The notes under the pieces are model-generated. The model saw only the letters and a list, made by a program, of their open reading frames with translations. It was not told the DNA's origin and did no database searches. 64,000 nucleotides of DNA from a virus: IMG/VR virus record IMGVR_UViG_3300045988_183163. The stretch is one strand, 5' to 3'. Of this stretch, positions 11,540 through 64,000 are shown one piece after another. Position 1 is the first letter of the stretch. Each line of letters opens with the position of its first letter. The translations under genes and the position numbers were made by a program.

Positions 11540-12802
11540 TCACCTTCTTTCTGTAATATAATTTGTTGCGACTTCTAGTAGCCGCATTTTTTTGTAGGAC
11601 GCGCTATTAGAAACAACAGTACCGTCCAATTTTTTAAGAGCGAAGTATCCAGAAGTTCGTCTGCCTGTGATAAAGCATTCTGAGCCATTATAGGATACTT
11701 TGTCCCAAAGACGATAACCCTTTACGGTGTACGGAGCTTGATTAGCCTTGCGTATACCACCTTTTAGGATAGTTGCTTTGTGCAGCTGTCTGTTATGGTG
11801 GCGTATAGCCTTCGTGTAGTAGCAAGTATCGCAAGGTATGGCCAATGGGTTCTTGCTAATGCAGCGTGCATCGTTGGTGTGACTTTTAGGAATACTATGC
11901 TTCTCACGCAAGTACTTGGTTATGTAGCCATAAGTCCCTTGTACCGGAATCTTCAGCTCTTTAAGCAAGCGTTCCATAAGTGTCTTACGCATAACCCCCA
12001 TAAAAGCTGCATCTTTGAGAGACCTGCCACGTTTTTTGCCGTCAAGTGTTACTTTTCCAGCGTGTAGAGCTTTATGGCAAGCTGTGCATAGCGTGATAAG
12101 GTTGTTTGGCGCATTGCCACCTGTTCTACGGGTCTCGATATGATGCACATGCAGCTTTACAGCTTTTGTTTTTGTTGGATGCGCACCGCAGCATTGGCAC
12201 GTATAATTGTCACGCTTTAACACATACTGGCGTACATTGTACTCATCGTACATTTCACCAAGCTGATAGTCTGTGCCTACCGGCAGAGGTTTACCTTCCA
12301 GCATTGCTTTTAGACGTTGTGTGTCAAACTCTGCTGTTTCTACTCTGACGAACGTAACAGGCAAAATACGACATACTCGCTTGATAAGCGTAATGTGTTC
12401 TTGAATCTTGACCTCCACTGATGGCGCTAACCAGCCCTTATGCTTGCTATGCACTCTGTTGTTGAAACGCGGCGCACGGTAACGGGTTTTGCGGTTTCGC
12501 CTGCTGCGTCTGAAAGCACGGCGTGCAGAAAGCAAATCAACCACATCATTGCGTGGAGTTGCCTCTTCGCAATAGAGTTCGTACTTTTCAGTGGCAGCAG
12601 ATATGCCAATATGTTTGCTGCCTGCATCTACGCCCAAAGTAATAGGTTGTTTGTATCCTGTACTTCCATACAGGAGCTTGATTGTAAACGGTGTGCGTTT
12701 TACAACGCATGCTTTCTTCTGCTTTAACAATAAGCGAGCCTTGCGTGGAGAGCACGGCATCAAAGGTTCGCCGTGTTTGTTAAGCACATACACATATTGC
12801 AT
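11540..12802 (-). CDS. iscB: IscB, OMEGA RNA-guided nuclease (PLMP, split RuvC, HNH domains)
   Basis: PLMP motif HGEPLMPCSPRKARLL; RuvC-I LGVDAGSKHIG; Arg-rich bridge helix RRAFRRSRRNRKTRYR; RuvC-II VRVETAEFD; HNH CQCCG...HHIE...NLITLCTACH; RuvC-III SHTNDARC. 420 aa; RBS AAGGAG. Confidence 0.8.
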   Translation of the reverse strand: MQYVYVLNKHGEPLMPCSPRKARLLLKQKKACVVKRTPFTIKLLYGSTGYKQPITLGVDAGSKHIGISAATEKYELYCEEATPRNDVVDLLSARRAFRRSRRNRKTRYRAPRFNNRVHSKHKGWLAPSVEVKIQEHITLIKRVCRILPVTFVRVETAEFDTQRLKAMLEGKPLPVGTDYQLGEMYDEYNVRQYVLKRDNYTCQCCGAHPTKTKAVKLHVHHIETRRTGGNAPNNLITLCTACHKALHAGKVTLDGKKRGRSLKDAAFMGVMRKTLMERLLKELKIPVQGTYGYITKYLREKHSIPKSHTNDARCISKNPLAIPCDTCYYTKAIRHHNRQLHKATILKGGIRKANQAPYTVKGYRLWDKVSYNGSECFITGRRTSGYFALKKLDGTVVSNSASYKKMRLLEVATNYITERR

Positions 12803-34284: not shown

Positions 34285-35680
34285 ACATTGACACACTCCC
34301 ACGATTAAAATCGTGGGATTCTACTTCAACGAGGCCGCTGGCTGACCCAGTCTTACGCCTCTCGGTAACGGCATGGTGCCCCATCCGTGAGAGTATTTTT
34401 ACGCAGTGTAGCCCGTTTGAGTTAATCCCATACGGCATATATTGATAGCTGCATTGACGTCTCTTTCGTGGTGCGTGCCGCAAGATGGGCAATTCCACTG
34501 CCGCTGCTTGAGTGTGAGCTTCGGGTAGATGTACCCGCAGCGACTGCAGCACTTGCTGGATGGAGCGAAACGGTCAATTTTCACGACCTCCGTGCCACAG
34601 TTGGATGTTGTCCACTCAAGGATTTTGACAAACTCACCAAACGCTATATCATTGATTTTGCGTCCCCAGAGTTTTTGCATCCCTGCAAGATTTAAGTTTT
34701 CAATGCAGATGATAGCGTAATCCGCTATCAGTTGGTAAGCAACCTTAAAGAACCAATCGGTGCGTTGGTTACATATTTTTCGATAGATACGTTCCAACTC
34801 TTTAATTGCTTTCTTACGGTTATTACTTCCCGGCTTACAGCGTGAAATATGTCTTTGCACTCGCTGCAGCTCTTTCAGAGAGGCTTTATACCATTCAGGG
34901 GAATCTATCACGCTGCCGTCATCCAAGTTGAGGAAGTGCTTCAAGCCAAAATCCATCCCGACAGCTTTACCTGCTCGTGGAAGAATTTCATTACATTCCT
35001 CTTGGGTGACGACAAAGAGGTAGACATCACCTAAATTGTCGCGCTTGACGGTTAAGGTTTTCACTTTACCCTTCAAAGGACGAGAATCGAAATAGCGATA
35101 CTTCTTACCATTGATGGTGACGCTGCCTTTGCCGTCAAACTTATAGCCTGCCTGTTTGAGCGTGAAGCTTTTATACATCTCGCGCTTCTTAAATTTCGGC
35201 AGCGACTTCTTGGTAGGATGCGCCTTTTTCTTATTATCAAAATAGGCTTTATAGGCGCGGTCAACGCGCTCCACCACATCCTGAATAGCTTGGCTGCCAA
35301 GATTGTGCCAGTGACCCCACTTGCGGCGCTTGCAGATTTTAGCAATGTACTTTTTCAAATCATTGGCTTTAAGCGTTTTGCCATAGACCAAATAGTACAT
35401 ACGCCGCATAGCAATGCAAAAATTCCAAATCTCGGAGGCTATTTCTATCTGCTGAACAAGATACTTGTTCTTCTTGTTGTTATACAGTTTGTACTTGTAG
35501 GTTTTCATTACAAGACGAATGAGTAGTAGCCTCCTTTTCTTTAGAATCTACTATCTATGGTACGCAATTCGCACGCTTTGACAGCAAAAAATGCTGTCCA
35601 TCTTGCGGATATGCAGCGTGAATTGATTCGTTCTTAACGCCTTTCATCCCACGACTAAAGTCGTGGGTTTTCCCGGCTTG
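34285..35680 (-). mobile_element. IS200/IS605-like element carrying tnpB only
   Basis: LE hairpin CCCACGACTAAAGTCGTGGG at 35648..35667 and RE hairpin CCCACGATTAAAATCGTGGG at 34298..34317 flank an intact tnpB. Confidence 0.65.
34399..35508 (-). CDS. tnpB: TnpB (RuvC-like RNA-guided nuclease, IS605 OrfB family)
   Basis: 369 aa; N-terminus MKTYKYKLYNN; RuvC-I GMDFGLK; RuvC-II IICIENL; zinc finger CSRCG...CPSCG; RuvC-III HERDVNAAINI. Its omega-RNA is expected to overlap the 3' end and RE (about 34290..34520). Confidence 0.8.
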   Translation of the reverse strand: MKTYKYKLYNNKKNKYLVQQIEIASEIWNFCIAMRRMYYLVYGKTLKANDLKKYIAKICKRRKWGHWHNLGSQAIQDVVERVDRAYKAYFDNKKKAHPTKKSLPKFKKREMYKSFTLKQAGYKFDGKGSVTINGKKYRYFDSRPLKGKVKTLTVKRDNLGDVYLFVVTQEECNEILPRAGKAVGMDFGLKHFLNLDDGSVIDSPEWYKASLKELQRVQRHISRCKPGSNNRKKAIKELERIYRKICNQRTDWFFKVAYQLIADYAIICIENLNLAGMQKLWGRKINDIAFGEFVKILEWTTSNCGTEVVKIDRFAPSSKCCSRCGYIYPKLTLKQRQWNCPSCGTHHERDVNAAINICRMGLTQTGYTA

Positions 35681-45775: not shown

Positions 45776-47470
45776 TTACATCTCTGCGTTAAACAGGTTG
45801 CGGAGCTTGTAGGTGATATCCTCGCTGTTGCCGACGATAGCTGCCGCTTCGTTGATGGAAGCGAGCTCCGAAAGACTATCCGCTGCGTAGTTGTAGCTGA
45901 TGGTGTAAATGGGGATATCCATACCGGCTATGATGTTCTTCGTATCGGAGAAGCCATATCCGGTATTGTTGTCACCGTCCGTGAGCACAAAGATGATGGG
46001 CGTGCAATTCCCACCCAGTTCCTGAGATTTCTGGTAGATGCGGTCCATAGCAACGCAAAGACCGTTGTACATTGCGGTGCTGCCGTTCGCATCGAGGGAG
46101 TTCACGGCACCCTTATACAGAGTTTTCTGGGTCAGAGAGAACTGGTTAATGGGCAGGTATTCCCTGACATCTGAATCAAAGCCAATGATGCCGATATAGT
46201 TGTCGTCATTGATATACTGGATGGTGTTTATCATCGCGGTTTTCAGGGCATTCAGGGGTTCGCCGCGCATCGAGCCGGAAGTATCGACAACGAACTCTGC
46301 CACAATAGGAATGCCTGAGTCCTTCTCTTCTTTCCAGACACTCTGAGCCTGTGCGATGGTGTTGCCATCGTATGCCTTGCCTGTATAAGCATAGTCGTCA
46401 AGACCATTGAATCCGTCCTTGGTCGCCTCTGCCTGGTTCTGAGCGCAGAAGGAAACGAAGGCAGCAATAACTTCCTTCTTCTCCGCAGAGACATTCCCGA
46501 TGGAATACAGAGGATTATCGTGCCGTACACCGAACGGGATGAACTCGTAGTTGCGCTGTAAGGTCGGGTCATTCTGATAAGACTGATACTCCATGACAAC
46601 GCCGTCCACGATGCCCTTGTCTGCCGACTGGACCATCTGCTGGGTCGTGAAGGATACGAGAGGGACGTTCGCTTGAAATTTCTGGAAATTCTCAACAGCA
46701 GCCGTATCGACAATCGTATCGCTGCCGCTGCTCGCAAGAGCCTCAAGCAGAAAATTAAGACCCGTAGCACTTGTGTAGGGGTTCGAGTATCCCATCATGA
46801 GTTTGCCATCGATGGTTGCGTTCAGAACGGAAGAAACAGACGCTTCACCGTATTCAGAGCGAAGCATATCCCCTGTCTTCTTTGATACGAGAATACCCGC
46901 CACATTGCCGACCAGACGGTCAGCCTCAACGGTCAATTCTACGCCCTCGTTCTTCACCAGCTCGCCAAAGAGCGTATTTGAGGGGGTATAGCACTCGGGC
47001 TGATACTTTCCCGTCGAGATGTACTCAGCCGCCGTACCGGACGGAATGGAGCGCAGGGAGACACTCATAGTCTTGTCTCCGGAAGTCTTGTTGTGCTGGG
47101 CGTTGAACTTCTTTGCCATTTCGGTCAGGAAAGAATCTGAGCCGGACTCTGCTGCTTTCTCGCCAGAGGAAAAGATTTCGATGTTCACATCTCCGTTTCC
47201 TACGACCACGAATGGGTAGGAGGATTCAATGTCGGGCAGTTCATCCTTTGCATCAAGGAATTCAGAGACATCCAGCTGCTGAGGATTGACCTTGACCTCC
47301 TGCACGCCGATGCGCTTCATCTTGCTGCTCAAGTTGGCATATGCCTGCTCGGACGTCATTGTACTAATGCTGACGTTTGAGTCCCTCATCACCGTCATCG
47401 AAAATACTCCGAGAACAACGCCTACCACAGCAATGGTTGCAACCACAGGGAAAATGTTCTTTTTTGTCAC
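45776..47470 (-). CDS. membrane-anchored protein with a periplasmic binding-protein-like region and C-terminal VWA domain
   Basis: N-terminal TM helix. The VWA MIDAS motif VVDTSGSMRGEP...GST...VLTDGDNN is clear. Confidence 0.65.
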   Translation of the reverse strand: MTKKNIFPVVATIAVVGVVLGVFSMTVMRDSNVSISTMTSEQAYANLSSKMKRIGVQEVKVNPQQLDVSEFLDAKDELPDIESSYPFVVVGNGDVNIEIFSSGEKAAESGSDSFLTEMAKKFNAQHNKTSGDKTMSVSLRSIPSGTAAEYISTGKYQPECYTPSNTLFGELVKNEGVELTVEADRLVGNVAGILVSKKTGDMLRSEYGEASVSSVLNATIDGKLMMGYSNPYTSATGLNFLLEALASSGSDTIVDTAAVENFQKFQANVPLVSFTTQQMVQSADKGIVDGVVMEYQSYQNDPTLQRNYEFIPFGVRHDNPLYSIGNVSAEKKEVIAAFVSFCAQNQAEATKDGFNGLDDYAYTGKAYDGNTIAQAQSVWKEEKDSGIPIVAEFVVDTSGSMRGEPLNALKTAMINTIQYINDDNYIGIIGFDSDVREYLPINQFSLTQKTLYKGAVNSLDANGSTAMYNGLCVAMDRIYQKSQELGGNCTPIIFVLTDGDNNTGYGFSDTKNIIAGMDIPIYTISYNYAADSLSELASINEAAAIVGNSEDITYKLRNLFNAEM

Positions 47471-47471
47471 G

Positions 47472-48284
47472 TTAAATTTCTCCTTTCAAGTTGTTATATC
47501 GTTTCATAGCCTCACGACTGATATCTTCATCCTGTTCAATATCCTGCGTCGTCTTGTTAATGACAGCATCGAGCTTTGACATTGCGAGCACAACCTCTGT
47601 ATCCCACGGATTCTGGGCAGAACGTTGGTTCAGAGCGTATGCTAAAGAATCCAATCGGAGGATTAAGCGCTCATTGTCATGAACTACCTTATCCACGGTA
47701 CTTACGATACCATTGTAGATTTCTTTCTTTTTCTGCGCTTCTTCTTTGTTTCCAAACGAGATAGAGCCTTGACAGAAAGCCTTGTATTCCGTTTCATCAA
47801 ACATTGAAGCCGAGCGAATCGCGTCATCCAGTCGGTCATAGAAGATACGTTCTGCGGATTCCAATAACGTTAGGCACTTGGTTTGTTCCCCGGATGTCTT
47901 GCTATCCTGGGTCATGCTGTAGGCAACGGCCATTTTTTGCCCGAAGCGCCGTACCTGATACAGCATTTGGTCAGCCTGCTCTGAGAAGACGCTTTTTGTC
48001 TTTACTGCCGTTTGAATTTTGTTGGTATACAGCTCTTCTTTGCTTGTAGGCCGTTCAGATGCAGCAGAAGCCGCAGCTTTCTGCTTTTTGAGAAAATTGC
48101 GATATGCAATGTAGGCGCAGAGCAGCAGGAACAGGACTGGCGTGCCATATTTCGCAAGGAGGATAAGGAACAGCGATGTTCCGTGCATGTATTCGATAGT
48201 GTAATAGGTGCTGATATAGGTTTCGACCATGTAGACTATAGCCGCTGCTATGATAATCAAACTCACGCCGAGCATTAACTTCAC
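47472..48284 (-). CDS. membrane protein (2 TM) with a cytoplasmic coiled-coil domain, XpaC/TelA-like
   Basis: Two N-terminal TM helices followed by a helical domain; the overall pattern resembles the XpaC/TelA toxic-anion-resistance families. This is a weak call. Confidence 0.35.
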   Translation of the reverse strand: MKLMLGVSLIIIAAAIVYMVETYISTYYTIEYMHGTSLFLILLAKYGTPVLFLLLCAYIAYRNFLKKQKAAASAASERPTSKEELYTNKIQTAVKTKSVFSEQADQMLYQVRRFGQKMAVAYSMTQDSKTSGEQTKCLTLLESAERIFYDRLDDAIRSASMFDETEYKAFCQGSISFGNKEEAQKKKEIYNGIVSTVDKVVHDNERLILRLDSLAYALNQRSAQNPWDTEVVLAMSKLDAVINKTTQDIEQDEDISREAMKRYNNLKGEI

Positions 48285-48345
48285 CTCTCCGGTTTTACTC
48301 TATTTGCTATCAAGAGGGCTTGATACGAAGTATCTTTTGCTTCTA

Positions 48346-48373
48346 ATTATCTTCGATTCGCACGATTCAGCAA
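48346..48373 (-). promoter_or_regulatory. conserved promoter family copy (TTGCTG-N16-GATAAT)
   Basis: Minus strand reads TTGCTGaatcGTGCGAATCGAAGATAAT. Confidence 0.45.
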
Positions 48374-48495
48374 CAAAGCCTTAACATGCAAAAAAGACAG
48401 TCACCCTAATTGGATGGCTACCATGAACTTTTCGTTTGCGTCACAACAGAAAAAAGGATGGCTCTTTCGAGTCACCCTCTTTTTATTCGTTGTCT

Positions 48496-50139
48496 TTAAT
48501 CTTTGGCCTTTTTGTCTTTCATGATAGCCTTCTCTTCTTCGGTCACATCCGGTCGAAAATGAGTGACTTCCTCACCGTTGAGACTCTTCTCATGAATTAG
48601 ATAGCCGCCTTCTACGCGTTCCATAGCATTGACACCTCCTTCCTTTTCACTATTCACAGGCTGTTCGCCTTGATTCATGATGTTGATGTTGCGGTCGGTC
48701 TTTGCCTGGATGCTGTTGGCACGGACAATTTCGCCCATGTCGATTCCGGTCGCTTCTTTCACCGTCTGCATGGTTTGAGCCATCAGGATAGGAACGTTCC
48801 CGGAAACGCCGGATACGCCGGAGGCGTCACCGCCAATGATAGAAACCTTATCAATGCTGGACAAAGGCTGAGCCACGCTTTTGGCAATGTCAGGAAGAAC
48901 CTTGATGAGCATTTCAGCCACAGCCGCATCGTTATACTGCTTATATGCCTCTGCTTTCTGTTTCATGGCTTCCGCTTCAGCCAAGCCTTTCTGACGAATC
49001 GCTTCAGCTTCTGCCTTACCGACAAGTTCAATGCCTTCTGCTTCCTGCTGCTTGGAGAACTTCTGTGCCTCAGCTGCACGTTCCGCCTCATATTTCTTGG
49101 CTTCTGCCTCTTTCTGGCGGCGGTACAGGTCAGCATCTGCCTGTTTGCGGACTTCCGCATCCAGTTTGCGTTGCTGGACCTCGGCTTCCTGTGCGGCAAG
49201 GTCTACCATTTTCTTCTGCTTGGCGATTTCAGCATCCGCTTCCGCTTCTTTGATTTCTTTGGCGCGGAGATTCATCTGAATCTGACCGGCAGCATCTGCG
49301 TCAGCCGCAGCTTTATCAGCTTCAGCTTTCAGCTTTGCCTTGGCGAGCTGCAATTCATTGTTGCGTTTTGCAATCGCAGTCTGCGCTTCAACTTCCTTGG
49401 CATTTGCAGCCATCTCAGCATCGGCCTTCGCGCAGGCTACATCACGGGCAGCCTGAGCACGGGCAATTTCAGCCTGTTTTTTCACAAGCTCTTCCTGTTC
49501 AATGCCGATAGCCTCAATGACGCCGTGGTTGTGGCCCTGAACATCCACCGCATCCCTGATATCCTGGACGTTAAAAGTCACGACCTCAAGTCCCATCTTA
49601 GCAAGGTCGGGGCGAGCATTCTCGATAACGCTCACAGCCATCTGCTTGCGGTTCGTCAGAATTTGGTCGACGGTCATGTCAGAGACAATCTCACGCAAAT
49701 TGCCCTGCAGAACGTCATTAACTTTCTCATTGATGCCCTGCTCGTTCATGCCCAGAAAGTTCGAGATGGCTGCCTGTTGGCGGGACATGATGTACGCCTT
49801 GGCGTCTTTCAGACCGGATGCCTTCACTTCTTCATCCAGAACGGTAGAGTTTTCGCTGTAGACTTGAATCGTGACAACAGAGTCAATCCAGAGACTTACG
49901 CCGTTCTTCGTCTTAACACCTGTTTCAGGAGTTTTGACGTCAATTTTCAGAAGGCGCATATTTAGCCGGTCAGCCCGCTGAAGAACGGGCAGAACAAATG
50001 TACCTTTTCCGCAAACTACTTTAGGCTTAGACAGACCAAAGCCGGTCACAACGATAGCCTCCGTGGGCGGAGCTTTCTTGTAGCAGAGAAATCCAAAGAG
50101 AATAATCAGGGCTGCCACAATCGCAATCACATATACCAT
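48496..50139 (-). CDS. flotillin-like SPFH/band-7 domain protein
   Basis: N-terminal TM helix, SPFH domain (VVTGFG...KIDVKTPE...), a long Ala/Glu-rich coiled coil, and a C-terminal flotillin-type region; 547 aa. Confidence 0.75.
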   Translation of the reverse strand: MVYVIAIVAALIILFGFLCYKKAPPTEAIVVTGFGLSKPKVVCGKGTFVLPVLQRADRLNMRLLKIDVKTPETGVKTKNGVSLWIDSVVTIQVYSENSTVLDEEVKASGLKDAKAYIMSRQQAAISNFLGMNEQGINEKVNDVLQGNLREIVSDMTVDQILTNRKQMAVSVIENARPDLAKMGLEVVTFNVQDIRDAVDVQGHNHGVIEAIGIEQEELVKKQAEIARAQAARDVACAKADAEMAANAKEVEAQTAIAKRNNELQLAKAKLKAEADKAAADADAAGQIQMNLRAKEIKEAEADAEIAKQKKMVDLAAQEAEVQQRKLDAEVRKQADADLYRRQKEAEAKKYEAERAAEAQKFSKQQEAEGIELVGKAEAEAIRQKGLAEAEAMKQKAEAYKQYNDAAVAEMLIKVLPDIAKSVAQPLSSIDKVSIIGGDASGVSGVSGNVPILMAQTMQTVKEATGIDMGEIVRANSIQAKTDRNINIMNQGEQPVNSEKEGGVNAMERVEGGYLIHEKSLNGEEVTHFRPDVTEEEKAIMKDKKAKD

Positions 50140-50403
50140 AATTTTTGTTTCTCCATTCGTAAAATAGTAATAAAACTATAAGTCAGGACTTGCGTCCTGT
50201 GGTCCACTTCGCCAATGTTATGCACTGTTTTAGCCTTTCGACATGACGCTCGCACTTCTCCTCCCCTCGGAGATGTTTAACGAAACGCCTGCAGAGCTCA
50301 CCACTTGTGGAGCATGGATAAGGTGCCTATATTATTAGTACACAACGTAGTTTTCCCCACTGCCGGAGCAATGGGCTTAGGCTAACCAACCGGGCTTACG
50401 GGT

Positions 50404-50458
50404 TGCCCCGCAAGCCCCGTCTATAACCGGCGAGCCGGTTTAGGCGGGGTTGTTGACA
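50404..50458. repeat. 55-bp inverted-repeat arm (partner at 63946..64000), including the last 6 codons of the lipoprotein gene and a GNRA-tetraloop hairpin
   Basis: 54/55 identity to the reverse complement of 63946..64000. It contains GGGCUUGCGGG-GCAA-CCCGUAAGCCC. Confidence 0.6.
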
Positions 50459-50784: not shown

Positions 50785-51116
50785 GTTCTTTCGTTCTCCT
50801 TCGTTTGGATAGTTTTTGCACAAATACTTCAATGTAGTATTTGTTGTACAACTACTATTGTACCGAGCTCGCATATTCCGGCAAGCAAACAACCATTACA
50901 AATTGGTAACCATTCGTGCAGCAGCTGACGATAACCGCCGGTTGTAGAAGCAGCGGACGGAACAGTGTATTACATTGACCCGACGTTCAACAGCGACGGG
51001 GACTACGAACGGTTCTTCTGGAAAGAAGAGCTGGAAGACCACAATATCGAAATCGACATTGTGCGCATCCGTGCTATGACGAACTGCTGCCGCAAGTTCA
51101 AGACGATGTAACTACA

Positions 51117-51147
51117 AGCCGTCTGCTTTCGGATGGGCGGCTTTTTT
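51117..51147 (+). terminator. intrinsic terminator following a short gene remnant
   Basis: GCCGTCTGCTTTCGGATGGGCGGC followed by TTTTTTT. Confidence 0.5.
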
Positions 51148-51157
51148 TGAAAAAATG

Positions 51158-51205
51158 TTTGACGAAACTTGCGAACAGCATACAATAAGTGTTGTACGAC
51201 AGATA
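51158..51205 (+). promoter_or_regulatory. conserved promoter family copy on the plus strand (TTGACG-N16-TACAAT), followed by TTGTACGACAGATAA
   Basis: TTGACGaaacTTGCGAACagcaTACAATaagtgTTGTACGACAGATAA; a terminator hairpin at 51244..51276 follows. Confidence 0.5.
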
Positions 51206-51243
51206 ATAAACCGACATCAACCATTCATAATCTGACAAATTCA

Positions 51244-51276
51244 GACAGGCACCAATCGGGTGACCTGTCTTTTTTG
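51244..51276 (+). terminator. leader terminator downstream of promoter 51158..51185
   Basis: GACAGGCACCAATCGGGTGACCTGTC followed by TTTTTTG; it precedes gene 51316..51666. Confidence 0.5.
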
Positions 51277-51315
51277 TTATGAGACCGCGTAATGCGGAGA
51301 AAGATGAGGATTACC

Positions 51316-51666
51316 ATGACCACTATTATGAACACCGCCGAATTCATCCGCGTTACCGACCTTCTGAAGAAGGAAAAGATTGCCAAGAGCAGCGGCAACA
51401 TATTTGCTGCTATGATGGCGATGCGCGAGAACCGCCCCGAAGCAATCTGCGCAGATGGCTTCAAGATGTCCATTCAGGCATCCGATGAGCACTACTGCCA
51501 GAAGACCGATGACGGGAGCTATGCGAGCGTAGAAATCGGGTTTCCGTCTTCGTCCGAGTCCCTGCTCGACGATTATGGTGATGACGGAGTGTACGGCTAT
51601 GTGCCGCTCACTGTTGTCGATGCCATCATCGCCAAGCACGGTGGAATCCTGCTCGATGAGCAGTAA
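51316..51666 (+). CDS. hypothetical protein
   Basis: Start at MTTIMNTAEF (RBS GAGGA); 116 aa. Confidence 0.4.
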   Translation: MTTIMNTAEFIRVTDLLKKEKIAKSSGNIFAAMMAMRENRPEAICADGFKMSIQASDEHYCQKTDDGSYASVEIGFPSSSESLLDDYGDDGVYGYVPLTVVDAIIAKHGGILLDEQ

Positions 51667-51815
51667 GCCACTCTATCCAATTCCAGCATGACATCCGGCT
51701 GCACGCCGTTTGTTCATATATGAAGCAGTTATCATTCCTCTTAATGAGAACAAAAATGATAGCTGCTATTTTTATTTTACAAGCCTCGAAAATACGAGGA
51801 GAAAGAGAGTTTGTT

Positions 51816-52988
51816 ATGAAAACCGCTATGAACACCAACATCAACACTAACATCAACACCAACACTACCAATTCCAAGAAAGTTATCCCCGGCATCAATG
51901 ACGTGGCTACCAAATGCCCTATGGCTGCTACCATGTGGAGTGACAAGAACACCTTCTCTCCCAGTAAAGTGGCTGCGGGAAGCAGAAGAAAGTTCACATT
52001 TGTTTGCCCAGACTGTGGGCAGGAATTTGAAAGCAAAATCTTTAGTGTTGTTCGTTCGGTAATGAACGGTAACACTGGTTGCCCTGTTTGTGCAGGTAAA
52101 AAGATTGTTTCCGGCATCAACGATTTGGCTACCAAATGCCCGAAAGCAGCCGCCATGTGGAGCAACAAGAATGCTTGCTCTCCCAGCGAAGCACCTGCAG
52201 GCAGCCACAAAAAGGCCGTCTTTGTATGTCCTGATTGCGGACAAGAGTTTGAGTCTTCCATTTGCAATGTCGTCAACTCTTTGATGCATTACCGCACCGG
52301 TTGTCCCGTTTGTCGTGGTTTGAAAGTGGTTTCCGGAATCAACGACTTGGCTACTAAGTGCCCTGCAGCAGCCAACATGTGGGGCAGCAAAAACGCTTGC
52401 TCTCCAAATGAGGTATCTGCAGGCAACAACAAAATGGCATGGTTTGTCTGTCCCGACTGCAAACAGGAGTTTAAGGCTCCCGTTTGCAATGTCGTCAATT
52501 CTTTGTTGCATGACAATACCGGTTGCCCTGTTTGTGCAGGTCGCAAGGCTGTTTCCGGCGTCAACGATTTGGCGACCATGTATCCAAAAGCCGCTGCTAT
52601 GTGGAGCGGCAAGAACGATTACGCCCCAAGCGAAATTCCTGCTCGTTCGTCCAGACGCGCCATTTTTGTGTGCCCCGATTGCAAACAAGAGTTTGTGACA
52701 AGCATCCACAACATGACGCGGGCTATTGCGTCCGGTGTTACTTGCTGCCCCAATTGCAGACTGCGGGGGCGTGCCATCAACGCAGCTCGCAAGGACGAGT
52801 ACGGTTCTCCGAAATCTGTCGGCACTACGATGACGATGAAGGATGGCAGCAAAGCCACCTGCACCGCTTATCATGGTGTCAACAACATCACGGTGGAGTT
52901 TGAAGACGGGTTCGTTTTGTACCATGCTCGCTGGAACCAATTTGTCCGTGGTGCTCTTCACCACGGTCAGAAAACCACTGAAGAATAA
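51816..52988 (+). CDS. zinc-ribbon tandem-repeat protein (four about 75-aa repeats GINDLATKCP...W..KN...FVCPDCGQEF...GCPVC)
   Basis: Start at MKTAMNTNIN (RBS GAGGAGAAAGAGAG). Four repeats, each with CxxC...CxxC. The antisense 420-aa ORF is rejected. Confidence 0.6.
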   Translation: MKTAMNTNINTNINTNTTNSKKVIPGINDVATKCPMAATMWSDKNTFSPSKVAAGSRRKFTFVCPDCGQEFESKIFSVVRSVMNGNTGCPVCAGKKIVSGINDLATKCPKAAAMWSNKNACSPSEAPAGSHKKAVFVCPDCGQEFESSICNVVNSLMHYRTGCPVCRGLKVVSGINDLATKCPAAANMWGSKNACSPNEVSAGNNKMAWFVCPDCKQEFKAPVCNVVNSLLHDNTGCPVCAGRKAVSGVNDLATMYPKAAAMWSGKNDYAPSEIPARSSRRAIFVCPDCKQEFVTSIHNMTRAIASGVTCCPNCRLRGRAINAARKDEYGSPKSVGTTMTMKDGSKATCTAYHGVNNITVEFEDGFVLYHARWNQFVRGALHHGQKTTEE

Positions 52989-53112
52989 TAAAAAAAGCCA
53001 TCTAATACGAAGTTGGCTTATAAATGTAGCAGCTATCATCTTCCTGCAAGGGGGGATGGTGGCTGCTTTTTATTGCAAGCCTCGAATGTTACGAGGAGAA
53101 AAGAGGATAATT

Positions 53113-54672
53113 ATGAATACTTTTGTGAAGGTTATGCATGCCAACACCTGCAATTGCGCTGCTTGCGCATCTGTTCCGACTCTTGGCATTAAGATGCCGT
53201 ATGAGGAAGAGGAAAAGAAAGCTACTAAAACTAGAAAGACTCGCCAAAAACTGATTGTTGGAGAAAACGATTTGGCTACGGTCGCTCCTGAAATCGCCGC
53301 AATGCTGAGTGAGAAAGATAAGCACTTTGCTTTTGAAGTTACTGCTGGAAGCAACAGGAAACTTACTTTTGTCTGCCCTGTCTGCAAGAAAGAGTTTGAG
53401 GCTAAAATTTGCAGTGTCACAATAGCAGTTTGCCCATGTCCTTATTGCCGCAAAGTAAAAAAAGCGCGTCGCAATTCGAAACCTATTGTTGGAGTTAATG
53501 ATTTGGCTTCGCAATGCCCGCAGGCTGTAGCAATGTGGAGCGAAAAGAATAAATGCTACCCAACAGAAGTTTTCGCCCAAAGCACTAAGACTGCAATTTT
53601 CAATTGCCCAAAATGTAAGCACGAATTTGAGACGACTGTCACATCCTTTGTGAAAAGCATCAAAAAATCGAAAGGCAATACTACTGGCTGCCCTATCTGT
53701 AATGGGACTAAAGTTGTTGTTGGCTACAATGATTTAGCTACGACCTGCCCCCAAGTAGCTGCTATGTTAAGCAAAAAAAACGCTGGCTTTGCAACAAAGT
53801 ACACTATGGGAAGCAATGCAGTTGCAAGTTTTACTTGTCCTGATTGCAAAAAAGAATTTGAGGCTAAAATTTGCAAAGTCACAAATGTAGTTTACCCATG
53901 TCCTTATTGCCGCGATACAAAAATTCTCGCTAATCATATGGATTTGGAAACTTACTTAAAGAAAAATAATCGAGAGGATATTCTTAACTGTATTCGTCCA
54001 GATAGTCCGTATCAGGCAAGTGAAGTTTCTTATTCCAGCAACAAAACATTATTTCTTAATTGCCCTGAATGTGGTAATAAATGGGTGATTTCAGCTAATT
54101 ATCTGACTGCACAAGGCATTAGTTATATGTGTGGTAATTGTAATCAAACGACAAATTTTATTTCCAAGCCAGAGCAGTATGCTGTTCGTATTGCAATGGG
54201 TTTTGCAAGGGAAAACGGAGTTCCAAATGCATTCGATGAAGTTCGTCACATTTTTGGCTATAACAACAAATATGGTGTAGATTTTGTCGATAACACTCGC
54301 AAGATTTGCATGGAGTACAATGGTGTATATTGGCATAAAGACAAAAAAAGAGTTGATTGCTATAAATTCATCAAAATCCATAATGCCGGATATACTTTTA
54401 TTCGTATACTGGAACCGGGCTTAAAAGCTTTTGACAAAAAATATGACATTGTATTGCCAAAAAACTACAAACACGGTAACGAGTATGAATCAAAAATCAT
54501 GGAGGACCTTGGCTATAAGCTTATTTCTTTATTTGAGGAAATCTATAATTACAAGGCCACTCCTGAAATTCAAAAATTAGTCGATTTTAAAGAATTCGAA
54601 AAGTGGTACGATATTCATCGCAAAAGAATTTCTGCAAAAGCTACCGAAAACGCAGCAAAGAAAGCTGCCTGA
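53113..54672 (+). CDS. zinc-ribbon tandem-repeat protein with a C-terminal DUF559/Vsr-like endonuclease-type domain
   Basis: Start at MNTFVKV, with the same leader as the upstream gene. It has zinc-ribbon repeats and a C-terminal GVDFVD...CMEYNGVYWHKD...D motif reminiscent of DUF559 PD-(D/E)xK nucleases. Confidence 0.55.
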   Translation: MNTFVKVMHANTCNCAACASVPTLGIKMPYEEEEKKATKTRKTRQKLIVGENDLATVAPEIAAMLSEKDKHFAFEVTAGSNRKLTFVCPVCKKEFEAKICSVTIAVCPCPYCRKVKKARRNSKPIVGVNDLASQCPQAVAMWSEKNKCYPTEVFAQSTKTAIFNCPKCKHEFETTVTSFVKSIKKSKGNTTGCPICNGTKVVVGYNDLATTCPQVAAMLSKKNAGFATKYTMGSNAVASFTCPDCKKEFEAKICKVTNVVYPCPYCRDTKILANHMDLETYLKKNNREDILNCIRPDSPYQASEVSYSSNKTLFLNCPECGNKWVISANYLTAQGISYMCGNCNQTTNFISKPEQYAVRIAMGFARENGVPNAFDEVRHIFGYNNKYGVDFVDNTRKICMEYNGVYWHKDKKRVDCYKFIKIHNAGYTFIRILEPGLKAFDKKYDIVLPKNYKHGNEYESKIMEDLGYKLISLFEEIYNYKATPEIQKLVDFKEFEKWYDIHRKRISAKATENAAKKAA

Positions 54673-54728
54673 TAGATTACAAGACCTCTGACGAACTCAG
54701 TCGTCTTTTTACATAGATAGCGTTTCCT

Positions 54729-54766
54729 GCCGTTCACCCATAACCGGGTGGGCGGCTTTTTCTTTT
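54729..54766 (+). terminator. intrinsic terminator after the zinc-ribbon genes
   Basis: GCCGTTCACCCATAACCGGGTGGGCGGC followed by TTTTTC. Confidence 0.5.
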
Positions 54767-55000
54767 GCCAACTACTTGCCATACGTCAATTTCATGCATG
54801 AATTACAAAATAGTAACCGTTCCATACAACCGCTGGCGATAACTACCAGTTGTAGTGTATTTGATTGGACTTCCAAATTCTATTTTAGTCGCACATATTG
54901 CAACTTACGGTTGTATTTGCTATACTAATAACAACCGATAACAACCAACGAAGCACAAATAACAACTAATAGGTGTTACCGCGAACCGAGGAGGCCAATC

Positions 55001-56302
55001 ATGGCGAGCGAACGAGCGATACTTCACTGTGACATGAACTCTTTTTACGCAAGCTGCGAGGCGGCTTATAACCCAAAGCTGCAGGGTAAGCCGATTGCAG
55101 TATGTGGTGACCCGGAAAGGCGAAACGGCATTGTGTTGACTGCCTCGTATCCGGCCAAACGGATGGGCGTGAAAACCGGGATGGCACTCTGGGAAGCGCA
55201 GCAGCATTGCCGTGACATCATCTTTGTTCCGGCTCATTATGACCTATATACCAGGTACAGTGGGTATACCAGAGAGATATTCCTCAGATACTCTGACATG
55301 GTCGAACCGTTTGGCTTGGATGAAGCATGGCTCGATTGTACCGCAAGCCGGTCTCTCTTTGGAAGCGGGGAAGAGATAGCCAAGAAAGTATCTGATACCG
55401 TGAAGAATGAACTGGGCATTACCTGTTCCATCGGAGTGAGCTGGAATAAAGTCTTTGCCAAGTTGGGGTCTGATTACAAGAAGCCAGATGCCACCACCGT
55501 TATATCAAGGTCAAACTGGAAAGATATTGTGTTCCCGCTGCCTGCCACGGACCTTCTGTATGTTGGGTCCAGAACGGGGAAAAAGTTATCAAGCTACTGT
55601 ATCCATACAATCGGTGATTTGGCGACCGCCAATCCAAACTTTCTGAAAGAAAAATTCGGGAAAATCGGCCCGATGCTTTGGGGATTCGCCAATGGCCTTG
55701 ACACGGGAGCAGTGGCGAAATACGAGGGAAGGAAAGCTCAGGTACCTATCAAGAGCATCGGAAACAGCTGGACAACGCCACGGGACTTGAAGACTAACCG
55801 GGATGTCTGGATTGTTATTTATCTGCTCGCGGAAAGTGTCGCTGCGCGGCTCAGAGAGAACCATTTCCGATGCCGAGGCGTAGAGGTGAGTCTCCGGGAT
55901 TCCAGCCTTTTCTCTTTTGAGAGACAGTGCAAGCTCGGCCAGCCAACGATGCAGGAAAAGGATATTGCGGAGGCAGCTTACCAGCTGTATAAGAAGAACT
56001 ACCGGTGGAGTGAGCACCTACGCTCAGTTGGCGTGCGTGCCATTGACCTGCGGCCAGATACGGAACCAAACCAGATATCTTTTGAGTACAGCGCCGAAAA
56101 GCAGGAAGAGACCGAGCGGCTTGAATCCGCGATTGACGGGATACGGAACCGGTTCGGATACTATTCCGTACAACGAGCCGTCATGTACAAAGACCGGTTT
56201 CTCTCTCATTGTGACGCCAAGGGAGACCACACCATACACCCACACGGGTATTTGCAGGGAAGCACAGGGGAGCATCTAATCTATGTCAGAACCAAGAATT
56301 AA
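55001..56302 (+). CDS. Y-family DNA polymerase (DinB/UmuC-like)
   Basis: ILHCDMNSFYASCE and the catalytic DE region; 433 aa; RBS GAGGAGG. Confidence 0.8.
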   Translation: MASERAILHCDMNSFYASCEAAYNPKLQGKPIAVCGDPERRNGIVLTASYPAKRMGVKTGMALWEAQQHCRDIIFVPAHYDLYTRYSGYTREIFLRYSDMVEPFGLDEAWLDCTASRSLFGSGEEIAKKVSDTVKNELGITCSIGVSWNKVFAKLGSDYKKPDATTVISRSNWKDIVFPLPATDLLYVGSRTGKKLSSYCIHTIGDLATANPNFLKEKFGKIGPMLWGFANGLDTGAVAKYEGRKAQVPIKSIGNSWTTPRDLKTNRDVWIVIYLLAESVAARLRENHFRCRGVEVSLRDSSLFSFERQCKLGQPTMQEKDIAEAAYQLYKKNYRWSEHLRSVGVRAIDLRPDTEPNQISFEYSAEKQEETERLESAIDGIRNRFGYYSVQRAVMYKDRFLSHCDAKGDHTIHPHGYLQGSTGEHLIYVRTKN

Positions 56303-56555
56303 GAAATATGTCGAGGTCATTGCCGATTTCTCTCCTGAAGGCATATTAACGCCTCAGACAGTCATCTGGGACACGGGCCAGAGATTCGATATCACCTGCA
56401 TCTCGGAAGTGTTGCCCCGGAAATACTCGAAAACTGGCGGAGTAGGAGTTCGCTATACCTGCCAGATAGGAAGAGCCAAAACATATCTGTTCTTTGAGGA
56501 GGACAGGTGGTTCGTGGAAGCAAAGGAAAATGCTGCAGCCGGAGACCCCTGCTAA
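56283..56555 (+). CDS. small protein downstream of the Y-family polymerase (YolD-like position)
   Basis: 90 aa; overlaps the polymerase stop. Gene order resembles the uvrX-yolD / yqjW-yqzH pairs of Bacillus prophages. Confidence 0.35.
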   Translation: MSEPRIKKYVEVIADFSPEGILTPQTVIWDTGQRFDITCISEVLPRKYSKTGGVGVRYTCQIGRAKTYLFFEEDRWFVEAKENAAAGDPC

Positions 56556-63874: not shown

Positions 63875-63945
63875 TTAAAGACAGAGCGATTGTGAGATGG
63901 GGCGATACCGATGCAGTAGGAATGAGAATCTTAGCAGCTAAAAGA

Positions 63946-64000
63946 GTCAACAACCCCGCCTAAACCGGTTCGCCGGTTATAGACGGGGCTTGCGGGGCAA
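63946..64000. repeat. 55-bp inverted-repeat arm (partner at 50404..50458); runs to the window edge
   Basis: GTCAACAACCCCGCCTAAACCGGTTCGCCGGTTATAGACGGGGCTTGCGGGGCAA. On the plus strand it would encode ...VNNPA-stop. Confidence 0.6.

Follow-up and report, generated by a model that had tools for sequence, protein, structure and literature searches.

The gene pair and its encoded domains

We analysed a 64,000-nucleotide (nt) stretch of DNA from the IMG/VR virus record IMGVR_UViG_3300045988_183163, hereafter called the window, with a focus on two adjacent genes, gene 1 and gene 2, which encode related arrays of zinc-finger modules and of which only gene 2 is predicted to carry a nuclease domain. 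Both open reading frames (ORFs) lie where a first-pass annotation, made by a model from the sequence alone, had placed them: gene 1 at 51816-52988 (390 amino acids, aa; ORF list and Pfam) and gene 2 at 53113-54672 (519 aa). These two genes and all other features of the pair given below are on the plus (+) strand. Gene 1 consists of an N-terminus of the (NTNI)n type, four modules of 74 aa each at 51891-52112, 52113-52334, 52335-52556 and 52557-52778 (DUF4379 matches and segmentation), and a linker with a C-terminal domain, here termed g1C, at 52779-52985. Gene 2 starts with a conserved N-terminus of 49 aa and continues with three modules (53260-53490, 53491-53721 and 53722-53943) and a degenerate fourth one (53944-54147); its last part is a predicted nuclease core of the Vsr-like or EDxHD type (about 54148-54546) and a helical tail reaching to 54669.

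The zinc-binding repeats claimed for both proteins proved to be real at the DNA level as well as at the protein level. A 222-nt DNA unit is repeated in tandem at 52073-52738, and weaker copies of it occur within gene 2. The hidden Markov model (HMM) search against Pfam that had been proposed at first pass assigned the repeats of both proteins to DUF4379 (PF14311), which Pfam describes as a "probable treble clef zinc finger". Four stretches were matched in gene 1 (128.6 bits, E value 9.8e-38) and four in gene 2 (95.8 bits, E = 1.7e-27), far above the gathering threshold of 24.5 bits. Specifically, gene 1 contains four exact 74-aa modules (aa 26-321), and gene 2 three canonical modules (aa 50-277) plus the degenerate one (about aa 278-345), which corrects the earlier count of four to six copies to four in each protein. 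Every module holds one CxxC...CxxC motif, and both cysteine pairs, spaced 21-25 residues apart, are found in all eight modules. The two proteins share 40% identity across 315 aa (E = 1e-66). An AlphaFold2 (AF2) model of the last gene-1 module displayed a hairpin-helix topology, at a predicted local distance difference test (pLDDT) score of only about 50-63. Comparison of 261 distinct modules from relatives revealed that the scaffold is kept and that positions 22, 32, 36, 49, 51, 58 and 61 are hypervariable; these seven positions are consistent with what would be expected of specificity residues, and may form a modular recognition surface.

The C-terminal region of gene 2, in which a likeness to DUF559/Vsr-type endonucleases had been suspected from the motif CMEYNGVYWHKD...D, is borne out as a nuclease by profile, predicted fold and catalytic residues. 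This motif (aa 399-415) forms the catalytic core of the Vsr-like domain and is conserved. A phmmer search of the Protein Data Bank (PDB) with gene 2 alone found 3r3p, the catalytic domain of I-Bth0305I (E = 0.007). Word-based homologue searches with the nuclease domain or g1C alone returned close relatives only, and for the nuclease domain it took an exhaustive HMMER run over 1.84 billion cluster representatives to obtain 79 relatives. In an alignment of 28 relatives the S, D, E, G, H and D columns were invariant, and the profile built from them reached E = 3.5e-8 with 3r3p and E = 1.5e-4 with 3hrl, a DUF559 structure. At E values up to 0.01 in Pfam, 19 of these 28 relatives matched MTES_1575, 17 matched DUF559 and two matched Vsr.

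The residues E170, D196, N208, H213 and D222 of I-Bth0305I define the EDxHD family (PMC3239194). They correspond in gene 2 to E354 (codon 54172-54174), D390 (54280-54282), N403 (54319-54321), H408 (54334-54336) and D415 (54355-54357), and the C-terminal part of gene 2 was directly aligned with N208, H213 and D222. The active-site set E...D...(N/H)...H...D is complete in gene 2, and its D, H and D are invariant in the 28 relatives; a Vsr-like nuclease fold was predicted as well. Because the profile matches 3r3p and 3hrl and the EDxHD residues align, we consider the nuclease call correct: on sequence profile, predicted fold and catalytic residues, the C-terminus of gene 2 is a predicted Vsr/DUF559-type nuclease of the PD-(D/E)xK superfamily. 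Annotations of related proteins point the same way. PADLOC matched gene 2 with its homing endonuclease model "HEase" (E = 2.5e-5), and PHROGs 559 and 681, each labelled endonuclease, cover both proteins. PHROG 559 carries an HNH label, and Pfam gave no HNH match in gene 1 or gene 2. A distant homologue in an E. coli phage is annotated as "homing endonuclease", and in another distant relative (P0038) the same nuclease is located inside inteins.

Gene 1 ends differently. No nuclease family was found in it with Pfam, NCBIfam or PADLOC, and by any domain detectable in the libraries searched its product would be no nuclease. Its last approximately 55 residues form g1C (VGTTMTMKDGSKATCTAYHGVNNITVEFEDGFVLYHARWNQFVRGALHH), which is almost invariant among relatives whose finger arrays vary in sequence and in number, from two to six modules. 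Among the top 119 relatives of gene 1, 55 end in g1C and 51 in the Vsr nuclease; therefore one type of array has been combined with two alternative C-terminal domains. Relative to orthologues in a different genomic context, the ratio of non-synonymous to synonymous substitution rates (dN/dS) was 0.14-0.16 for the array and 0.03-0.18 for g1C, at dS values of 0.4-1.5. Because dN/dS stays near 0.15 at such divergence, gene 1 is an old, constrained gene under purifying selection and no decaying copy.

The g1C domain has no Pfam model, and its structure prediction reached a pLDDT of only 48. It is homologous to the N-terminal approximately 50 aa of proteins from Bacillus Herelleviridae phages (tblastn E = 7e-5 to 5e-4; hhalign probability 95%, E = 1.7e-8, 45% identity), which are labelled "HNH endonuclease" or "AP2 domain-containing/DNA-binding protein", for example Hoody T gp200 and B4 gp168. 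The small domain common to gene 1 and these "HNH/AP2" proteins is covered by no family model. In the Bacillus phage homologues, AP2 is a separate C-terminal domain and g1C aligns to the N-terminus outside it. Among the proteins named "HNH endonuclease" in RefSeq, Pfam found no HNH domain, and AP2 in only one of three tested. Two identities for g1C were considered and rejected. The first, a minimal HNH nuclease, lacks any HNH match, and its candidate histidine (YHG) is replaced in the divergent copy of locus L063; the second, an AP2 domain, is ruled out by the separate, C-terminal position of AP2 in the Bacillus phage homologues, and AP2 gave no match to the gene 1 C-terminus even at E = 10. 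The Bacillus phage homologues lie at 1489-2235 of locus L075 and 1471-2229 of L074. At its other end, gene 1 opens with the low-complexity (NTNI)n stretch MKTAMNTNINTNINTNTTNSKK (51828-51875), and relatives differ in length by 16 residues (390 versus 406 aa, and 316 versus 332 aa).

Apparent spread of gene 2 and recurrence of the pair

The two genes differ in how they are distributed. The exact gene 2 protein occurred in 522 index blocks of the metagenome collection, compared with 100 for gene 1, and the adjacent polymerase was found in only seven contigs. Gene 2 DNA was 100% identical, or nearly so, where the nearby polymerase (IMS) gene was 84.5-99.9% identical, a contrast carried mainly by related loci L007-L012 and L013-L014 and by the index counts. 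The interior of gene 2 (53385-54646) has a separate history. Its GC content is 37.1%, and 33% at third codon positions (GC3), compared with about 50% and 55-58%, respectively, in gene 1 and the flanks. It is near-invariant across samples, with 98.1-100% identity in 14 loci, and has been replaced in L015, where identity drops to 44%. In the L015 allele, the first approximately 270 nt, the last approximately 25 nt and the downstream region are conserved, and the interior is swapped.

Degenerate and fused copies were also identified. The A8 homopolymer at 53773-53780 within gene 2 is an A7 in L010, and the resulting frameshift splits the ORF. Fused relatives (P0016-P0018, P0022 and P0027) were seen as well: relatives of the alternative allele form one ORF either with a truncated C5 or N6 methyltransferase gene or with the 5' portion of a gene of 588 aa. 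The latter gene is intact in L052, a cassette-free relative of the same backbone which shares the polymerase module and aligns with the window only from 54847. Gene 2 displayed, in short, the marks of a mobile gene, namely variable presence, different contexts and degenerate copies. We read its near-identity across diverged backbones, foreign composition, allele swap and frameshift as recent invasion: gene 2 appears to behave like a recent invader, with the traces expected of a recombinogenic nuclease gene that is spreading.

The pair is accompanied by a third, small ORF. p124 (51292-51666; 124 aa when read from the first ATG, whereas public contigs start it at 51316 and give 116 aa) has no credible Pfam match and belongs to no known family. 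It lies upstream of gene 1 in L001-L010, L012-L015, L060, L064 and L066, of which L060, L064 and L066 represent unrelated flanking contexts, and the block p124 - gene 1 - gene 2 (about 51135-54795) was found with different flanks in L060. The right end of this block is at 54690-54795, homology ending at 54795 in L060 and at 54771 in L063. Our comparisons suggest that p124, gene 1 and gene 2 together form a portable cassette of about 51135-54795.

A search for the same pair elsewhere, proposed in the first-pass annotation, was productive: the tandem of gene 1 followed by gene 2 was seen in five or more flanking contexts that are unrelated to one another, with the same spacer of about 125 nt between the genes. 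Of 30 IMG/VR loci retrieved, 27 carry a gene-1-type gene on its own, and gene-2-type genes without gene 1 are the exception (L056 and L057). In gene-1-only loci of an unrelated DNA-ligase context, homology to the window spans 51768-53019, from the leader through the ORF to the small hairpin that closes the unit. The asymmetry between lone gene-1-type and lone gene-2-type genes would fit a landing site of gene 2 near gene 1, entry through the shared leader and repeats, or cooperation between the two proteins, without favouring any of the three. In the literature searched, no description was found of the recurrent pairing or of the three-gene cassette. The class of nuclease itself is known, and the undescribed feature is its recurring pairing with a nuclease-free paralogue.

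Candidate functions of the pair

Taken together, we think it probable, though by no means certain, that gene 2 belongs, as a gene that stands free, to the EDxHD/Vsr-like type of homing endonuclease, and that gene 1 is its long-lived nuclease-free paralogue, a DNA binder that serves as a regulator or silencer or as the partner or landing site of gene 2, both travelling in a portable cassette. Among the three functions first offered for the pair, defence, anti-defence and homing, homing is the one favoured by the evidence. In the mechanism that we infer, which includes DNA binding by the modules, cleavage, homing, a functional link of both proteins, their DNA targets and the role of gene 1, the four DUF4379/CapR-like modules of gene 2 would bind a long DNA site and its Vsr-fold domain would cut through E354, D390, N403, H408 and D415 with Mg2+. 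As with I-Bth0305I, the cutting form would probably be a dimer, and gene 2 would spread when the break is repaired from a copy that carries it. Gene 1 would be a sequence-specific DNA binder, acting as regulator or silencer, or as partner or landing site for gene 2, and the finger arrays may expand, contract and swap by recombination between the 222-nt repeats and between the conserved gene ends.

The architecture of gene 2 has a published counterpart, although it was not recognised at first pass as a described system. A 2025 study described arrays of CapR/DUF4379/DUF723-like domains of about 60 aa, each array ending in a C-terminal nuclease of the EDxHD/Vsr-like type, and treated them as a large outgroup to the EDxHD/Vsr homing endonucleases; the class, found in phage group I and II introns, was presented there as a large and mostly unannotated family (PMC12350094); PHROGs and PADLOC likewise label relatives as (homing) endonucleases. 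Compared by described architecture, gene 2 corresponds to this class, with three to five CapR/DUF4379/DUF723-like domains of about 60-75 aa followed by a Vsr-like nuclease of about 100 aa. The published genes lie within introns, whereas gene 2 stands free and has a nuclease-free paralogue at its side. Gene 2 can be regarded, as far as its sequence tells, as a new free-standing member of this recently described class. I-Bth0305I (3r3p; PMC3239194), by contrast, carries two NUMOD/HTH motifs where gene 2 has four zinc-finger modules. An N-terminal region of that type is missing from gene 2, where DUF4379 modules stand instead, in agreement with the 2025 outgroup. The two share about 21% identity, and gene 2 has an additional helical tail of about 40 aa. 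Unlike I-Bth0305I, gene 2 is free-standing in an intergenic hot spot and is known from sequence. Vsr mismatch endonuclease and the DUF559 and MTES_1575 families share the nuclease type, yet by its context gene 2 is no repair enzyme, being fused to a DNA-binding array, situated on a mobile element and marked by an invasion-type signature.

Several points weigh against a homing gene with a nuclease-free paralogue. Cleavage by gene 2, its target site and a homing event are predictions. Gene 2 alone stays below the Pfam cut-off for DUF559 (PF04480; 13.8 versus 20.6 bits, E = 0.054), as well as below the Pfam thresholds for Vsr (PF03852) and MTES_1575, and Foldseek gave no significant match to gene 2 in the PDB. 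I-Bth0305I obtains most of its specificity from the nuclease dimer and uses NUMOD/HTH domains, and the mechanism of gene 2 may differ. Loci L001-L006 were retrieved by an exact match to the gene 2 protein, and their identity in gene 2 is partly given by construction. A clean empty site, with gene 1 directly before the polymerase gene, was looked for in 15 loci that have this backbone, and none was found. A simple selfish-gene model does not call for so strong an association of gene 2 with gene 1, which might point to a two-component system. Moreover, the host element may be a phage, a plasmid or a hybrid.

First among the alternatives, gene 1 could be a CapR/CasPR-like silencer, a domesticated homing-endonuclease array which represses genes of the host or of rivals, such as defence genes, independently of gene 2. 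We find this doubtful, though an anti-defence or regulatory role of gene 1 would be conceivable by analogy. Precedents exist in CapR, which derives from the zinc-finger domains of homing endonucleases, lacks a nuclease and represses an operon of a phage (PMC8096241), and in the CasPRs, CapR + AP2 proteins that silence cas genes (bioRxiv 10.64898/2026.02.23.707548). The CxxC...CxC fingers of the CapR type bind DNA sequence-specifically, and cysteine mutants lose binding (PMC8096241). These Cys4 zinc-finger repressors, which are nuclease-free and encoded by mobile elements (CapR by a PLE satellite), are the best functional analogy for gene 1, which is nuclease-free and kept by selection, the two properties looked for in a CapR/CasPR-like protein; it is also strongly conserved and abundant on its own in related elements. 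Furthermore, g1C is shared with Bacillus phage AP2-domain DNA-binding proteins, and in L057 a related pair has a type I-C cas locus in its vicinity.

The analogy has its limits. The Pfam CapR domain (PF21817) scored 15.8 bits on gene 1, below the threshold of 24.2 bits (E = 0.016), which indicates a distant relationship only. Gene 1 has four tandem DUF4379 modules and the unmodelled g1C and no AP2, unlike CapR and the CasPRs, and g1C aligns to the N-terminal domain of the Bacillus proteins, not to AP2. Those Herelleviridae "HNH"/AP2 proteins carry the g1C-like domain at the N-terminus, without a zinc-finger array and with AP2 at the end, whereas in gene 1 it is C-terminal. Formally, gene 1 belongs to neither the CapR nor the CasPR family, and the likeness is therefore one of mechanism, not of membership. 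A target sequence and repression would be ascribed to gene 1 by analogy; probably it binds DNA sequence-specifically and without a nuclease, in the manner of CapR and the CasPRs.

Second, the pair, with or without p124, could be a two-component conflict system, in which gene 2 would be the effector nuclease against competing phages or plasmids and gene 1 would direct or regulate it, or shield the element's own sites as an immunity factor. We regard this as unlikely. The recurrence of the gene-2-type gene directly 3' of the gene-1-type gene with an unchanged spacer in at least five unrelated contexts would suit it, as would purifying selection on gene 1 and the position of the cassette in a variable region adjoining restriction-modification, HipA-like and IscB/TnpB genes. 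The weak single-domain matches in PADLOC, PDC-M14A on the zinc-ribbon stretch (E = 2e-5) and HEase (E = 2.5e-5), would suit it too. PADLOC gave no match at the level of a system, however, and a defence system as such found no support. Gene-1-type genes standing alone in 27 of 30 loci, and gene-2-type genes without gene 1 in L056 and L057, also speak against it, and the module numbers of the partners vary independently (two to four versus one to six), which argues against a common target. The near-identity of gene 2 across diverged backbones suits invasion better than co-evolving partners. Last, that both genes are decaying duplicates, pseudogenised remnants of homing endonucleases without present function, is very improbable: broken copies (the L010 frameshift), many truncated ORFs in databases and fusion scars with other genes exist, but both window ORFs and all catalytic residues of gene 2 are intact, its exact protein is indexed in 522 collection blocks, and the dN/dS of about 0.15 for gene 1 at high dS largely refutes decay.

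If gene 2 is indeed a homing gene with a nuclease-free paralogue, very large uncultivated mobile elements of the human gut would carry an actively spreading Vsr-type homing endonuclease, whose specificity comes from interchangeable tandem zinc-finger modules. Hundreds of metagenomes would then offer a natural population in which to trace how a homing gene invades, swaps alleles and decays, and the pair would be a test case for the domestication of homing-endonuclease DNA-binding arrays into regulators such as CapR and the CasPRs. The modules would also be a candidate modular DNA-recognition scaffold with identifiable hypervariable positions, of possible interest for genome engineering. A bolder and rather improbable idea is that p124, gene 1 and gene 2 are a functional unit rather than neighbours by chance, in which a programmable nuclease-free array of 74-aa modules, with about seven specificity positions and a copy number altered by unequal recombination, works with, guides, restrains or provides a landing site for its paralogous Vsr-type nuclease. 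Such a unit would use modular, protein-based DNA recognition with a readable code, either for silencing host or rival genes, as CasPRs do, or for targeting rivals for cleavage.

Leader regions and surrounding element

The duplicated leaders noted in the first-pass annotation stood in part. The pattern GCCTCG-N(6-7)-CGAGGAG has exactly two occurrences in the window, at 51783 and 53079 (0.04 expected by chance), and an alignment showed that the upstream regions of both genes are alike over about 110 nt, a strong terminator-type hairpin with a U-run included. The reading of this block as the ribosome-binding site (RBS) did not hold, as the Shine-Dalgarno sequence is likely the purine run 6-7 nt 5' of each ATG (GAGAG in one gene and AGAGGA in the other), downstream of the small hairpin. 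The terminator-type hairpin with its U-run lies at 51724-51779 upstream of gene 1 and is homologous to the one upstream of gene 2; the RNA fold of 51715-51830 reached -27.3 kcal/mol (z -4.06). Leader 1 (51780-51815) reads CAAGCCTCG-AAAATA-CGAGGAGAAAGAGAG plus 6 nt and holds a weak 5-bp hairpin (51784-51799) and a purine-rich RBS. The leader also stands 5' of gene-1-type genes in L016-L038 and L042, and the copy in L041 differs from it by one base. Leader 2 (53073-53112) reads GCAAGCCTCG-AATGTTA-CGAGGAGAAAAGAGGATAATT. Sequestration of the RBS by the small CCTCG/CGAGG hairpin was considered and found no support: the stability of the hairpin does not exceed that of shuffled sequence (z -0.9 to -1.6), the loop differs between the copies, no covariation was seen, and the likely Shine-Dalgarno sequence lies downstream.

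The gene 1 unit ends with a small hairpin AGCCA...TGGCT at 52996-53018. Between gene 1 and gene 2 follows a strong intrinsic-terminator-like hairpin at 53028-53067 with a T-run, the feature reaching to 53072; this region folds at -40.3 kcal/mol (z -4.5) and matched in the terminator scan. The same scan found two terminator-like hairpins 3' of gene 2, at 54690-54705 and 54729-54756. Upstream of both genes, the only plus-strand match to a sigma-70-like promoter is TTGACG-16-TACAAT at 51159-51186, which comes from a consensus scan and precedes p124. The block that holds it (51135-51304) has 80-84% DNA identity to L016-L041, where it lies upstream of gene-1-type genes in another context. Rfam gave no family within 50900-55100 at E values up to 1.

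The first description of the surroundings as a repeat-bracketed block agrees with our data. A 55-nt inverted repeat (50403-50457 and 63946-64000, the latter at the window edge; 98% complementary) encloses a 13.5-kb block that includes the gene pair. In L051 (6872-9183), the right end of the block (window position 63943) is joined in reverse orientation to the flotillin gene. Either the block would exist in both orientations, or the inverted repeat would be a hot spot of recombination. In several related loci, homology to the window begins exactly at 50458. Just outside the left repeat arm, a VWA-domain protein, a 270-aa ORF and a flotillin/SPFH protein are encoded at 45776-50139 on the minus (-) strand, and other relatives carry metallophosphatase/DUF6557 genes at the flotillin/VWA position.

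Human-gut metagenomes contain the element in abundance, on contigs as long as 294 kb, and IMG/VR lists it as viral. The locus had no megablast match in the INPHARED phages or the PLSDB plasmids, and no relative turned up when the species-representative genomes of GTDB were scanned for gene 2. Among 30 further ORFs of the window that were scanned with PHROG and Pfam, phage hallmark genes were almost absent, most ORFs of the element being without a family, and in related loci a VirB4/TraC-like ATPase is encoded about 10 kb from the cassette. Directly 3' of the cassette lies a Y-family polymerase gene of the ImpB/MucB/SamB type (55001-56555), followed by an overlapping 90-aa ORF; this polymerase module is much more polymorphic than gene 2 and is present without the cassette in L052. 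The cassette sits in a variable region that adjoins restriction-modification, HipA-like and IscB/TnpB genes. The window has an IscB-like ORF (RRXRR + HNH) at 11540-12802 and a TnpB-like ORF (OrfB_IS605 + Cas12f-like TNB) at 34399-35508, both on the minus strand. Further RRXRR ORFs adjoin the cassette in L003, L005 and L007-L012, and OMEGA-type elements are frequent in the element. In another element, L057 (4098-7488 and 10405-13488) carries a gene-2-type nuclease fused to a truncated EcoRI-like methylase, with type I-C cas genes at a distance of about 3 kb; it adjoins a second Vsr-nuclease gene, in which the nuclease is central with zinc ribbons on either side.

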